From Schmidtea polychroa (Eukaryota), in assembly GCA_044892525.1 (NCBI GenBank), contig CM097886.1:40300001-40364000 (forward strand): DNA of 64,000 nt, given 5' to 3'. Shown here piece after piece: positions 34,770 to 48,498 of this stretch. The notes under the pieces were generated by a model, which saw only the letters and a program-made list of their open reading frames with translations, made no database searches and was not told the DNA's origin. Position 1 is the stretch's first letter; every line of letters starts with the position of its first letter. The position numbers were made by a program, and so were the translations under genes.

Positions 34770-36688
34770 AGTAGTATATAGTGAGGACTCCAGGACACTT
34801 TCAAAGTCATCCCAACGTCCAGATCAAATATAGGTCAATCGAATAATTTTATTTATTTATTTATTTTTTTTTAATTTATTTAATTACTTCCATTTAATTT
34901 TTTTTTTAAACTTATTAATTAATTATTTTATTATATTTTTTGTTTTAATTAATTACTTTAATTAATTTTCAATTTATTACATTTAATTAATTAATTATTT
35001 ATTAATATTTTATTTTATTATACTTACGTTATTTAATTCATTTTTTTTTTAATTTTAATTTTTTATTTATTTATTTATTTATTTACCTTTTTTTATTTAT
35101 TATTATTATTATTATTTTTTTTTATTGTTATTATTTTACATTTACATTTAATATATTCTAACAAGAGTGTAAATCGTAAAAAATAATATTTCAATTTGAA
35201 TAAAATTTTAATTAGTAATTATCATAAAATAAAGCTGTGTTAATTTAAAATAAAATGGGCATTGATTTTTCAAAACAAAGCAAAGTTTTTCATGATAAAT
35301 AATAATTCTTACTTAAAACTAATTATCTAAATTAATTGGACAAATGAATTATTAAATGATAAAACATATTTTAATTAACGAAGTCAAATAATTCACAATA
35401 TATATTTTATTATTCACATAAATTTAATTGTTAAAGTGCTTGTTTCGATTTGCATTCGTTTCTAGACATAGCAGTTGCAATATGCATTTGAAGAATCTTA
35501 TAGTGACCGTAGGCATAGCTTTCATTAGAATTGAACCAATACCTTTTATCATCCAAACATTGGAGAGCTCGTTTTTCTGTCATGAAAGTATACAACTGAT
35601 GATTGACACTTCCTATTCTTTTTTGTGGGATGCTCACTGTTCCACCATCAGTATACACTTTTTTATAGGCTTCATGTGTAAGATTAGAGTTTGTAAGTCT
35701 TATTCCTTTGGCTTTTAGAGTGTTTTTATCGCCTTGGAGTGAGTAGCACTTTGGTCGAAGAAACACCCATTCTTTATATTGATTTCCTTTATTCTCATCC
35801 TTAACTTTCCCGATTACAGAACAAATTTTATCAGAGAACAACGGATCGGTCACTGGATAATTTGAAGTATCTAGGAGCCCATCTTCAATCATTTTTGGAT
35901 ATAGTTGTAAGCGTAAATCTACATTTTTACACTCTAAAAAGAAGGAATCTGTGTCACCAGCTACGATATTAATTTGACAATTGAATTCTTCTCTATAACT
36001 CTGTAGTTCTTTATATTGAAATTGGTACATGCGAAGTTTGGATAAATCAAGTACGGTTTGTCCAATATACATTGGTCTATCTAAACACACAATTTCCTTA
36101 TTGAGTATAACAGCAATGAGATCATCCGCAATCTTGATGCTACGACGAAACATAGGATGACTACAATAAGTTATCAATCTTTTGCTTTTGTTGCATAATC
36201 TCAAATTTATACGTTTCTTCAAGTTTTCCACAGTTTTACCGTATAAACTGTTGTTCTTTAACTTATAATAATCTCGCTGAAACGAATCCGTACTAGCTGC
36301 TTTCATTTTGGTATTGTAATCAATATATCCTTTGAAAATAGCCACTTGTTTGAATTCTACAGCACGATTAATTTTTGTGACTTTTGCGCCGTAACTCAAC
36401 CACTCTGTCAAAACTCTACCATTAACTACATAGTTTTTCTTAGGCTCATGAGTTAACAACAGCTTTTCAGCTTTACTACCAGGCGGATACCAAAGCTCAG
36501 GAGCTATAGGTAAATCATCTAGTTTATCTTGTATACTATCAGGAATGACGATGTCAACCTCTAGAACATATCCACGATCTCCATCAAACTCATCCCCATT
36601 TGCACATCTTTCAACAATACCATTCATTTCAGTCTGATCATTTATCCATCTAAATTCATCAACAGGAAGTTTTTGCGACAGCGCCCAT
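34770..36688. repeat. Outer left arm: inverted copy of 46345-48264
   Basis: Near-identical reverse complement, 1919 vs 1920 bp, including the 3' half of polB. Confidence 0.95.
35431..36687 (-). pseudogene. 5'-truncated duplicate of pPolB (starts right after motif A)
   Basis: Matches the C-terminal ~400 aa of 45248-47602 except PGSKAEKL vs PGSKVEKM; lacks the exonuclease domain and DVNNLYG. Confidence 0.92.
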
Positions 36689-38942
36689 AAAAAATTAATA
36701 ATAAATTGACGCTTTTAGAGTATGCTCAGGTATGATATTTCCAAAACAATATTTATAATAATTTAATTTATAAATAAAATAGGTTCCCAAAGATAAAAGG
36801 GAAGAATTTACTAGCATACAAAAGTTTAATATTTTCAATACTAATAATTTATGGTTAAATCTAGATAAGATTAAAATGTTAGTTGTGCAAAATAAAATAA
36901 AAATGGAAATAATTGTTAATCCAAAAACATTGGATAATGGTAAAACAGTTATTCAACTGGAACAGGCTGCCGGTGCTGCTATTAAAAGTTTTGACAATGC
37001 ATTGGGTAAGTAAAGATTTTTGAAGCCAGCAGTAAGTCTAGAATTTCTTAATAATGTTTTAAAAACCTTAATTTAAATGGATTTCGGATTCAAATTATAC
37101 TGTTTGTGTTCTGTTTTATTTCTATGGCTTCAATTTTGACCTTGATTTCAAACACAATAAATAATCTTGTTACAATACCATCATACACATGGTAAATGTC
37201 ATTGGCAACCACATTTGGAATAATGTGGATGGACAGATCAATGTACAATCAATGGACAGATGAGATCCGTTTCCAAAACTATTTCAAATTGCATTTTCAT
37301 AAACGGGTTCATAACTGAAATTATTAATCTTTTATTGTTTCATTTTCGTATGATTCTAATTTCTGGTTGTTAATCAATGTACTGTTTCAAACTTTTGGGC
37401 ATGGTTCTGCATTCATCTTTCATTTTAGCATTTTAATCTTAGACCATTTTGGAAATTTTGTGATAGGTTTCCTTAGAAATTGGAACTTTGGACTCACTTT
37501 AATATCTTTTTAATATCTTTTGAGCCCATATTCCATATTGAGTGATGTATTTCATTGCACTAGTTTTGAAAGTTTCGGTTTGATGTGGAATGACCATGAT
37601 CTTTAATGAGTAGTGAAGCAGATATTTTACTTATTTGAACATGATCACCGAAATAACAAAAGTGCAAAAATTTACTTAAGAGTAGAAAATGTAAAAATTA
37701 ATATCGATTGGGGGAATGGGTATGGTTGAAAGCTAAATCATGAGACAAATCCAAAAAAATAATAAAAATTTAGTGAATCGTCCCTAGAAAAAATTTGAAT
37801 TAAATAACAAACTAATTAAAAATTGATTAATCGTCAATGAGAAGCCCGAATCAACAGGAAAACGGAACGATGAGGAAAACCAGGAACGCACTGATATTCA
37901 CACTGACCATCAAAGCAAGTTAAATCGAACGTGGATTGAAATTGTTAGGATTCCGATAATCCCCAGCAGAGCCACCAGTTGGTCGAAGAAAACACTATGA
38001 GAGGACGATTACGAAAATACAAGAGAACTAAAGAAAGAATTCAAATAAAACTAAAGATAATTATAAACTATCGTAACAGAAAAGGTGATTACTCCTTTGA
38101 CAACCTACCTTGCGATAATTAATATCAATGGAAGAAAGGATCAAATCTTGTGACTAATTGTAATTTTGGTGAATTTTGAAGTTGTTTTGTGTTGGGTTTA
38201 ATAATTAGCCAACAATATTATATGGCAATTTTAAAATCATGAAACACCTTTGGTATTGATTTGTTAAGGCATTCTGTAGTAACAAAAGATTGATGTTTTT
38301 AAGTACATAGTATGCGAAACACAATTCTGTTGCGGTTCTCCGTTCTTATGTGCTTTTTTGTTTTACAAGATATTTTGTGTAATAGTTTTATACTCTACTT
38401 TATGATGCTACGTTGGAAGTATGTTTTTGTTTTCTAATATGATCCTCTTTTTCTAATTTCTCCATGACTAATATTTAAATAAGTATTATAATACTTTCAA
38501 AAGGCTTCTGCACAATAATTTTCAGTAAATTGGAATTTTTTCTTTCGAATCTTTACAAGACTAAAAGATAAAAAACATTTTAAATTTTTATTTATTTTAT
38601 ATTTTAAACATTAACAATCATTAAAATAATAAAATTGCTATACAGTATTAGCCGAAAAAATAATTAAAAACGTATTACACCCATAGGCGACGGTCAGGAA
38701 TCCGGATTATTTTAATTAATTTAAAATCAATATTTAATCAATATTTAAACTAAAAAAATTCTTATTGTTGATCAGTTTTATTATATATACTCTGAGTTTA
38801 TCCGACAGGATGTTTTGACCCCCTAAGGGTACAGGTCGTAAGGGTACTGGTCGTAAGGGTATTAGTCGAATTAGATGAATTACATAGCCTTTAGAATGTG
38901 GCTTTCGAGGGAAAATTTGGCGGATGGAAATATTTTCGATAT
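36687..38942 (+). pseudogene. Inverted duplicate of host segment 53001-55308 (UGP exon 36783-37005, partial exon 36688-36730, intron and most of the Merlin-type MITE)
   Basis: Reverse complement of 53001-55308; encodes [24 protein letters not shown]...[18 protein letters not shown]; a few SNPs and a ~50-bp deletion relative to the original. Confidence 0.93.
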
Positions 38943-47602: not shown

Positions 47603-48498
47603 CAATTAAATTTATGTGAATAATAAAATATATATTGTGAATTATTTGACTTCGTTAATTAAAATATGTTTTATCATTTAATAATTCATTTGTCCAATTA
47701 ATTTAGATAATTAGTTTTAAGTAAGAATTATTATTTATCATGAAAAACTTTGCTTTGTTTTGAAAAATCAATGCCCATTTTATTTTAAATTAACACAGCT
47801 TTATTTTATGATAATTACTAATTAAAATTTTATTCAAATTGAAATATTATTTTTTACGATTTACACTCTTGTTAGAATATATTAAATGTAAATGTAAAAT
47901 AATAACAATAAAAAAAAATAATAATAATAATAATAAATAAAAAAAGGTAAATAAATAAATAAATAAATAAAAAATTTAAATTTAAAAAAAAATGAATTAA
48001 ATAACGTAAGTATAATAAAATAAAATATTAATAAATAATTAATTAATTAAATGTAATAAATTGAAAATTAATTAAAGTAATTAATTAAAACAAAAAATAT
48101 AATAAAATAATTAATTAATAAGTTTAAAAAAAAAATTAAATGGAAGTAATTAAATAAATTAAAAAAAAAATAAATAAATAAATAAAATTATTCGATTGAC
48201 CTATATTTGATCTGGACGTTGGGATGACTTTGAAAGTGTCCTGGAGTCCTCACTATATACTACTCATACTGTTCCGTAGTCAATTTTTTTAATAAATATA
48301 ATGTTAATTGAAAAGAAATTAGAGATCAAAATCGAAAGAAGTTATAATAATAATTATAATAATAATTATTATTATTATATTATATTATTATTATCTCTCC
48401 CTTAAAAAATATTATTAATTTTCGTTAGTAATTAATTTTTCAGTCAAAATTTAACCAACTAAAAGTATTGAAATATTTACTCTTATTTAGAATACATT

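Follow-up and report, generated by a model that had tools for sequence, protein, structure and literature searches.

The window, the whole 64,000-nucleotide stretch of Schmidtea polychroa DNA that we analyzed (GCA_044892525.1, contig CM097886.1, positions 40,300,001-40,364,000, forward strand), holds at 34770-48264 a 13.5-kb element that is a broken member of a multi-copy, mirror-symmetric family of Polinton derivatives. In window coordinates, the features are:

34764-34769, + strand: left TSD, CATACT (sequence comparison)
34770-36688, - strand: left outer arm (terminus, AT-rich subterminal DNA, 3' part of polB), mirror of 46345-48264
35431-36688, - strand: truncated left polB, last 418 codons
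36689-38940, + strand: captured host DNA, inverted copy of 53001-55307 (intron-exon-intron of UDP-glucose pyrophosphorylase; sequence comparison)
36903-37008, + strand: duplicated UDPGP exon within the captured piece (PF01704, E 8.5e-27)
38941-40234, - strand: left inner arm, with 83-bp and 143-bp repeats (~3 units of 143 bp) and the family-wide junction motif at its end
40235-41916, no strand: centre, between inward-facing terminal 24-mers identical to those of complete family-Z Polintons
40714-40762, no strand: turn, an asymmetric T-rich spacer between opposed 31-bp arrays
41917-43686, + strand: right inner arm, with ~6 units of 143 bp, 83-bp repeats, a 45-bp duplication and a diverged tract
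43701-47602, + strand: right polB (protein-primed family B, with N-terminal zinc-finger-like and endonuclease-VII-like parts), broken in this copy
44493-44540, + strand: predicted GT-AG intron 1 of polB, 48 bp (a 16-residue insertion relative to an intronless homologue)
44703-44741, + strand: predicted GT-AG intron 2 of polB, 39 bp (a 13-residue insertion)
44955-44997, + strand: predicted GT-AG intron 3 of polB, 43 bp, which contains a stop and shifts the frame
47603-48264, + strand: right subterminal DNA and terminus
48265-48270, + strand: right TSD, CATACT (sequence comparison)
53001-55307, - strand: donor of the captured piece, inside the host UDP-glucose pyrophosphorylase gene

The Polinton termini (AGTAGT at 34770, ACTACT at 48264) and the 6-bp TSD are as the original prediction described them. 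The mirror that it proposed between 34770-36688 and 46345-48264 is 99.74% identical over 1,920 bp (4 mismatches, 1 gap), and the inner arms, given as 38941-40712 and about 40861-43686, do mirror one another around 31-bp arrays. As anticipated, the arms differ by SNPs and repeat counts (~3 versus ~6 units of 143 bp), and also by indels; in the diverged tract of the right inner arm, 16 sites differ from the left arm and 13 from a sister copy. The claimed reverse complementarity of the two halves holds for the outer and inner arms but not for 36689-38940 (2,252 bp), which has no mirror. Moreover, 2,658 bp of the right arm (43687-46344) lack a left counterpart, and the left polB is therefore reduced to its last 418 codons. 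"Two polymerase ends" thus describes the family but not the window copy, which shows only in part the near whole-length self-complementarity of its relatives.

The unmirrored piece appears to replace the 5' half of the left polB. It is 99.7% identical to host positions 53001-55307 (5 substitutions, one 1-bp indel, one 40-bp gap), and both capture junctions have a 2-bp AT overlap. Further exons of the host gene lie near 51066-51452 and 61202-61537. A whole-genome exact search found the start of the UDPGP exon exactly twice; the capture is unique and local, its donor lying 4.7-7 kb rightward of the element. We considered whether the piece is a separate transposon and rejected this, as it contains a host exon and has only two genomic copies. 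When words from 35400-39100 were sought in sequencing runs, the best run held 0.92 of them, a value that is not junction-specific because the words are multi-copy polB and host DNA; no RNA run was among those listed.

The pPolB profile match in the window copy is clear (PF03175, E 9e-28), and the right gene is damaged: an upstream exon contains a stop, and the frame changes near 45232. Across the family, the splice sites of the predicted introns are conserved, with donors at 85/85, 80/82 and 85/85 and acceptors at 83/83, 77/83 and 82/85 for introns 1, 2 and 3. These introns, the captured host gene piece and the Polinton-terminus origin of the centre were all absent from the original prediction. 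Its account of an element lacking integrase and capsid is borne out: nothing in 34770-48264 matched an integrase, ATPase or capsid. ORF scans, which had no protease marker, found no unexplained frame of at least 100 codons in the element, and by these scans and the core-gene search it encodes no resolvase or other extra gene.

How widespread is this design? Exact marker counts across the genome gave 634 polB starts and 651 inner arms, with the inner arm preceding the polB start in 78/90 cases. Sister elements are 12-15 kb mirror elements, with arms of 5.8-6.9 kb in many copies, and shorter-armed deletion forms are also present. An exact 6-bp TSD flanks 30 of the 35 loci with both termini matched. 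Whether both ends lead into polB elsewhere had been posed as a check, and on C1 both arms carry polB of the same lineage at 14 of 19 convergent junction pairs. A sister copy only 0.24% away, on another chromosome, has both full arms, and all subfamilies up to 5% apart have the inner arm. The family thus comprises many independent insertions at unrelated sites, each with its own TSD, which dismisses as very improbable a one-off TIR expansion over the left-hand genes of an ordinary Polinton at this locus, or an amplification or assembly artefact: in-place expansions do occur in this genome, but dozens of such copies exist, the arms differ by SNPs, indels and repeat counts, and the captured piece differs from its donor. 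The fold-back or misassembly model offered earlier accordingly fails for the family; the TIR-expansion model fails as a one-locus account, although expansion of this kind does take place in this genome and seems to affect all copies once they have inserted. Among the first 100 polB starts, 56 lie in divergent pairs and 44 are unpaired, and the unpaired starts count against the explanation that we propose below.

No core gene was found in 13 clean mirror copies plus the window, using tblastn with two local integrases for the integrase; core genes in family copies occur only inside nested complete Polintons. We also sought a composite ancestor with a full helper between two arms, and found no integrase or capsid between the arms at C1:55.49 Mb (junctions 14.9 kb apart) or at six other loci. 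With Polinton ends and TSDs, no integrase of their own and complete relatives in the genome, these elements qualify as non-autonomous derivatives. Their arms fall outside the Polinton norm for TIRs of ~100-1,500 bp, and they are not devoid of functional coding capacity: shared polB variants point to purifying selection, although the window copy itself is broken.

Complete Polintons are present in the same genome. Family Z encodes an rve plus chromo integrase, an A32-like ATPase, a capsid-like ORF and a polB 55% identical to that of the mirror family. Pfam assigned no capsid family to the Z capsid-like ORF; an atlas search placed it with DJR-like clusters at 0.97 with low recognition, which is a lead only. 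Family X has 2,205 terminal matches and one 18.5-kb copy with all markers, and family Y has 126 DJR capsid matches. The earlier suggestion to look for a helper is answered to this extent: complete families with AGTAG ends carry an integrase and may act as helpers. Arm-copying intermediates are seen in complete families: in one Z element, 4.9 kb of the polB arm plus flank are mirrored, and one Y element has a 3.2-kb arm that includes the capsid gene. In a quick, midpoint-rooted tree of 78 rows, from which segments of <200 aligned residues were excluded, mirror-family polB groups with the polymerases of complete Polintons. The mirror design is common to three polB clades that are ~60% identical.

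The centre links the two kinds of element. It contains 31-bp arrays related to the Z TIR repeats, plus T-rich blocks; 253 of its bases (41213-41465) read N. The turnaround had been placed in a 31-bp satellite. Opposed 31-bp arrays do lie at the turn, but the centre is not plain satellite, being bounded by the terminal 24 bp of complete Polintons, and the Polintons whose termini bound it are likely the helpers. Centres are 0.2-2.3 kb long across copies and vary between subfamilies at one and the same junction.

Are the arms shaped before or after insertion? We counted polB variants in 51 of an estimated 450 loci, chosen non-randomly from terminal matches, top BLAST hits and convergent pairs; "private" variants may therefore have unsampled siblings. 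Variants in at least three copies had an N+stop/S of 74/88 with no stop, compared with 164/50 for private variants in both arms (11 stops, 20 frameshifts; P 1e-9) and 84/22 for private variants in one arm (P 4e-8). Six frameshifting indels are common to several copies, and some of these may belong to the reference copy. The substitution pattern indicates that polB is under purifying selection in the variants common to at least three copies. Private variants were found in both arms in 214 cases and in one arm in 106, with similar N/S (P 0.67) and the same spectrum; those in both arms appear neutral. The nearest sequence to an arm is its own opposite arm in 36/40 copies, and the four exceptions all come from one very young subfamily. 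Single copies have a Gypsy element, or a solo LTR, in both arms. At C1:203.37 Mb, one end consists of the terminus, 275 bp of inverted copy of the element's own left flank, a 53-bp TIR tip and the TSD, and C1:88.45 Mb shows the same flank-mirroring. The elements at C1:124.75 Mb and C2:127.36 Mb share the 19-bp terminus and also have mirrored flanks; they are more distantly related and did not enter the variant counts. Since private two-arm variants appear neutral and a copy mirrors its own flank, the arms are likely rewritten in place after insertion.

We therefore propose a polB-only family of mirror Polintons that inserts with 6-bp TSDs, likely borrows an integrase, is predicted to replicate itself through a self-annealed strand, and has arms likely rewritten after insertion; we give this reading a probability of roughly 65%. 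At its origin, a remnant of a complete Polinton may have sat inside a polB-bearing Polinton. Repair synthesis copying one arm over the other would have reached the outer terminus, deleting the integrase and capsid side and leaving the remnant as a centre between flanks that are now mirror images. A single such origin, absent later exchange, leaves the differing subfamily centres at the same junction unexplained. The insertions carry their own TSDs, and a helper integrase would have made them, given that none occurs in the family and one is present in families with AGTAG ends. During replication, a displaced palindrome strand would immediately self-anneal into a duplex that has a protein-priming end and, at the centre, a loop. 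That purifying selection acts on polB along the subfamilies implies that the enzyme serves its own element. As copies age, arm breaks would be repaired from the other arm, sister copies or nearby DNA, as the rewritten arms partly bear out; in the window copy, the template would have been the host gene 4.7-7 kb to the right. Independent TSDs, missing core genes, complete Polintons and selection on polB all favor the looser form of another earlier model, a polymerase-only, helper-integrated, self-complementary element. More tentatively, and at somewhat less than an even chance, these elements may be self-complementary satellites that carry only a polymerase, replicate by snap-back, hijack helper integrase (perhaps capsids) through the helper-type termini at their centres, and were reassembled on at least three occasions, with different polymerases, around a single reusable mirror module.

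An alternative is that the copies are passive non-autonomous passengers, and that selection on polB was inherited from an unsampled or lost integrase-bearing master of the same polB lineage, which repeatedly donated polB arms. The X-like mirror lineage nests among the polymerases of complete X Polintons, the centres match termini of complete families abundant now, and the loci examined are a minority. Inner and outer regions also do not co-vary: across 41 copies, distances calculated from the 5' region were uncorrelated with those from the polB 3' region (Mantel rho -0.08, P 0.71), a result that is uninformative or mildly against a tightly linked inner/outer unit. However, the polB start is joined to core genes in none of the 51 variant-set loci, nor to integrase, ATPase or capsid in any of 20 further loci (12 inner-arm misses and 8 unpaired). 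Moreover, inner-arm and polB-start markers are about equally common, the inner arm is present in every subfamily up to 5% apart, and the long last polB exon remains open in 25/74 family arms. We consider such passengers unlikely.

Slightly less probable still is that arms are equalized only at transposition, by mismatch repair or end-filling on a folded strand, with symmetric damage reflecting old damaged sources moved in trans. Panhandle intermediates are the standing Polinton model (as cited in PMC4046053), variants in two copies are intermediate (N/S 36/17), and in some copies the outer arms are more alike than the inner arms. Against this, own-flank mirroring and local host capture require copying at the chromosomal site, and private symmetric variants in 35 of the 38 listed two-arm copies would each demand a separate unsampled source.

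The strict form of the earlier model, in which a linear replicon with a protein-primed end and a covalently closed hairpin end integrated as a dimer, would account for whole-length symmetry, divergent polB genes and the small hairpin at the turn of some copies. Such a dimer predicts a fixed, near-perfect or flip-flop palindromic centre, but across copies the turn spacer lacks symmetry and ranges from 99 to 305 bp between opposite repeats, the centres have unequal arrays as well as unequal lengths, sisters inherit the window copy's turn with the same asymmetry, and no resolvase is encoded. We regard this dimer as highly improbable.

Why does a polB-only mirror family matter? Polinton replication has been modeled through a folded single-stranded intermediate, and a demonstration is absent from the portions of the literature examined. 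An all-panhandle family with near-identical young copies and a selected polymerase but no integrase would separate replication from integration in nature. It sharply predicts free snap-back DNA, a terminal protein and helper dependence, and mirror elements would offer a natural system for studying the replication of such elements. With so many independent palindromes, gene conversion between arms can also be measured in natural replicates; here, this conversion removes the usual means of dating elements by the divergence of their arms, and it can draw in adjacent host exons. Pipelines that need polB plus integrase, and short-read assemblies, would overlook such elements.

Palindromes of other kinds offer a resemblance only. 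In Y-chromosome palindromes, arm-to-arm conversion keeps the arms alike, and Tetrahymena rDNA forms a head-to-head palindrome at a short inverted repeat; both are host loci and not mobile. Among mobile elements, the family shares with Polintons/Mavericks its AGT-type termini, 6-bp TSD, terminus-directed protein-primed polB and 13.5-kb size. Reported Polinton TIRs are 100-1,500 bp (46-1,447 bp in vertebrates), and intact vertebrate Polintons are reported to be intronless (PMC10748475, PMC8097293, PMC6431247); in contrast, the mirror family lacks integrase, ATPase and capsid, carries polB twice within 6-7 kb inverted arms, and has three predicted spliceosomal introns in this gene. Snap-back defective viral genomes (PMC13506859) are likewise near whole-length palindromes from a viral replicon with presumed helper use. 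However, they are described as transient products with no coding capacity, whereas the mirror family appears to keep a selected polymerase, integrates and forms inherited subfamilies. The TIRs of Galileo, a Foldback-like, P-superfamily cut-and-paste element, grow by recruiting internal sequence, and long TIRs are proposed to attract recombination and conversion (PMC3573991, PMC4168063). Its longest-TIR copies have TIRs of ~1 kb and no coding region, unlike the mirror family, whose arms are the entire element, gene included. In C. elegans, ten scattered remnants combine pPolB and a TIR without integrase, which resembles our integrase-less polB beside Polinton TIRs, but the part of that report available describes no mirror architecture or amplified family (10.1101/2024.01.15.575659). 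No description of such a mirror polB-only family appeared in the literature searched, which comprised listings and the starts of abstracts, with Repbase, subscription journals and supplements outside its scope.

Relatives elsewhere include 1,438 homologous proteins. Among 80 metagenome loci, on contigs too short to reveal a mirror structure, 33 had a core-gene match and one had an inverted repeat of >200 bp; the eight closest lie on contigs of 1.9-4.8 kb that carry polB only.

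The element at 34770-48264 is a dead member of a polymerase-only, mirror-image Polinton family (the mirror family) that lies outside the autonomous Polintons. Copies of this family carry their own target-site duplications (TSDs), lack the core genes, have complete neighbours ending in AGTAG, keep polB under selection and have been rewritten locally at some sites. We propose that the family is a new variant, which would work like a self-replicating, integration-dependent satellite.

34770-36688 and 46345-48264: outer arms, reverse complements at 99.74% over 1,920 bp (self-BLAST of the window); the termini are AGTAGT, and the TSD is CATACT
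36689-38940: captured host sequence, without a mirror counterpart in the element
40235-41916: centre, with an inward-facing 24-mer at its bounds
near 43701: start of the right polB (domain PF03175)
53001-55307: source of the captured piece, inverted, 99.7%
31599-33919: Gypsy-type pol (reverse transcriptase, integrase), separated by about 850 bp from the element's left end

The original prediction of Polinton termini and a 6-bp TSD is borne out. Its claim that the left half is the reverse complement of the right holds for the outer arms and, less exactly, for the inner parts, which mirror each other around 143-bp and 31-bp arrays, but fails at 36689-38940, where a host copy lies instead. pPolB sequence lies in both arms, but neither gene is intact: the captured piece sits where the mirror of 43687-46344 should be, so the left polB has only 418 codons, and the right polB has one stop and one frame change. 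The captured piece contains a UDP-glucose pyrophosphorylase exon (PF01704) whose start occurs twice in this AT-rich, 781-Mb animal genome with four very large contigs, in the piece and in the donor; the host gene lies on the minus strand, right of the element. Piece and donor differ by 5 substitutions, a 1-bp indel and a 40-bp gap, with a 2-bp AT overlap at both junctions. The difference is 0.2% both between the outer arms and between capture and donor, which places the patching of the left arm from the neighbouring host gene roughly when the outer arms last matched. The right inner arm has a tract with 16 differences from the left arm and 13 from a sister (a close family copy). Near one capture junction, the host intron carries a Polinton-TIR-like motif with a 15-bp tandem repeat (38790-38866; donor near 53075-53150).

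The terminal 19-mer of the family occurs 139 times in the genome. The paired loci that we fetched include many whole-length mirrors of 12-15 kb and also deletion forms retaining pieces of both arms. One sister on C3, another chromosome, has both arms complete and a polB 0.24% from the window copy's. Of 47 loci tested, 35 gave a match for both termini, and 30 of these 35 have an exact 6-bp TSD. Genome-wide, exact markers matched 634 times for the polB start, 651 times for the inner arm and 516 times for the arm/centre junction. Among the first 100 polB starts, 56 are in divergent pairs under 12 kb and 44 are unpaired; the inner-arm marker lies upstream of the polB start in 78/90, and both arms were seen at 32/79 marker loci. 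Extrapolation puts the family at around 450 loci, of which some 180 would carry two polB starts.

The predicted lack of integrase and capsid was confirmed: local integrase, ATPase and capsid markers match neither the window element nor any of 13 clean mirrors, and do match two loci with nested complete Polintons. Moreover, polB was joined to integrase, ATPase or capsid at none of 20 fetched loci (12 without the upstream inner-arm marker and 8 unpaired starts). On C1, the largest contig, 14 of 19 further convergent junction pairs carry same-lineage polB on both arms; the 19 were picked as pairs and are hence biased to mirrors. Ten of the 14 are of the window's lineage, two of a second and two of a third, and their outer termini differ. 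The three lineages, about 60% identical to each other in the compared segment, form separate starred clades in a quick tree, the third falling among the polymerases of family X (families X, Y and Z are complete Polinton families of this genome). The genome also holds at least one gene-less 5-kb mirror with a TSD. Near both ends of C1 (0.38-1.22 Mb, loci L037-L038; 269.57-269.71 Mb, L131) are head-to-tail arrays of Polinton ends, with units of 4.4-4.6 kb ending in the mirror-family terminus and of 2.6 kb ending in the Z terminus. At C1:8.84-8.85 Mb (L145-L146), tandem 3.46-kb units (Z-type polB part plus capsid fragment) are attached to a mirror-family inner arm. Polintons of different families are often nested, and some of these insertions lie only a few bases from a terminus already present (L139:8090, L023, L027, L157-L158).

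We counted polB variants in 92 arms of 51 copies over 789 codons, a partial, non-random sample. Variants in at least three copies comprise 74 nonsynonymous, 88 synonymous and 0 stops; the corresponding counts are 33/17/3 for two copies, 79/22/5 for variants private to one arm and 153/50/11 for those private to one copy, in both arms. No difference was seen between the two private classes (P 0.67), but each departs from the shared class (P 4e-8 for one-arm, 1e-9 for both-arm), whose ratio is about a quarter of theirs. Frameshifts are private in both arms (20) or in one arm (32), with 6 shared. This pattern of shared variants indicates that polB was under purifying selection on the branches separating the subfamilies; the inner arm is present in every subfamily. 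Across 41 copies, the 5' region does not co-vary with the 3' region of polB (rho -0.08); this, the partial non-random sampling and the unpaired starts (44/100) count against our reading. The 5' region at 43556-43960, which includes the zinc-finger-like first exon of polB, varies less from copy to copy than the catalytic region (1.2% vs 2.6%).

The 24-mer bounding the centre is also the terminus of complete family Z Polintons, which are 14-15.5 kb long, have their own TSDs and encode an rve+chromo integrase, an A32-like ATPase and a polB 55% identical to the window copy's; their TIRs carry a 31-bp repeat related to that of the window centre. Other mirror subfamilies have family X termini at the same junction (2,205 matches; one complete copy of 18.5 kb). 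The sequences flanking the centre mirror each other and do not form a TSD. Complete families with AGTAG ends exist in this genome, as the original prediction had envisaged, and are the probable helpers. Its hairpin-ended replicon fares poorly: the turn is asymmetric and variable, with opposite repeats 99 to 305 bp apart, and two sisters share the turn of the window copy, in one or the other orientation. This disfavours a fixed hairpin end and favours a palindrome inherited as a whole, loop included. At the exact turn in L021, L081, L090 and L069 is a GC-rich hairpin with arms ATGAGTCA/TGACTCAT, a presumably AP-1-like motif repeated in TIRs of complete families too. At C2:167.64-167.66 Mb (L097-L099), two inverted mirror centres 11 kb apart, each with the same transposase inserted, form a palindrome of palindromes.

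A copy's own arm is its nearest relative in 36/40 copies; the four failures are nearly identical copies of a single young subfamily. Decay-like damage is symmetric twice as often as it is confined to a single arm, and larger lesions present in both arms include an identical 405-bp deletion and insertions of a Gypsy element (4.6 kb) and of a solo LTR. Two copies end in the terminus, an inverted duplicate of their own left flank (~260-275 bp) and a TIR tip, followed in one by the TSD. These own-flank copies and the window's host capture imply copying that is possible only at a chromosomal site. Complete families undergo the same arm-copying: a family Y element (L073-L075, C1:165.718-165.735 Mb) has 3.2-kb arms at 99.9% and thus two capsid genes, and a family Z element (L125-L126, C1:197.283-197.302 Mb) carries a 4.9-kb mirror of its polB arm and outer flank in place of the ATPase end. 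The latter is likely an intermediate of mirror formation.

We propose that the mirror may have originated when arm copying ran on from a Polinton remnant at the centre, that a helper integrase would integrate it, and that its own pPolB would replicate it on a strand snapped back on itself, which takes the panhandle model of Polinton replication (cited in PMC4046053) to an extreme. In older copies, symmetry would come mainly from arm-to-arm repair.

Reported Polinton TIRs span 100-1,500 bp (PMC10748475; 46-1,447 bp in vertebrates, PMC8097293), whereas the mirror family has whole-length mirrors of 12-15 kb. Intact vertebrate elements are intronless (PMC8097293), whereas the right polB has three short GT-AG insertions, predicted introns that are missing in intronless homologues and two other local polB lineages. 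Viral snap-back genomes are described as non-coding (PMC13506859), unlike the mirror family with its selected polB. C. elegans likewise has polB remnants without integrase (10.1101/2024.01.15.575659), and Galileo shows TIR growth (PMC3573991, PMC4168063), as do the arms of this genome's Polintons. The term 'palindrom' is absent from the accessible text of PMC6431247, and full-text searches, with Repbase, subscription papers and supplements aside, yielded no description of a polymerase-only mirror Polinton. The closest metagenomic polB relatives (L215-L222, 47-61%) all lie on short contigs that hold nothing but polB, which would fit either collapsed mirrors or plain fragmentation.
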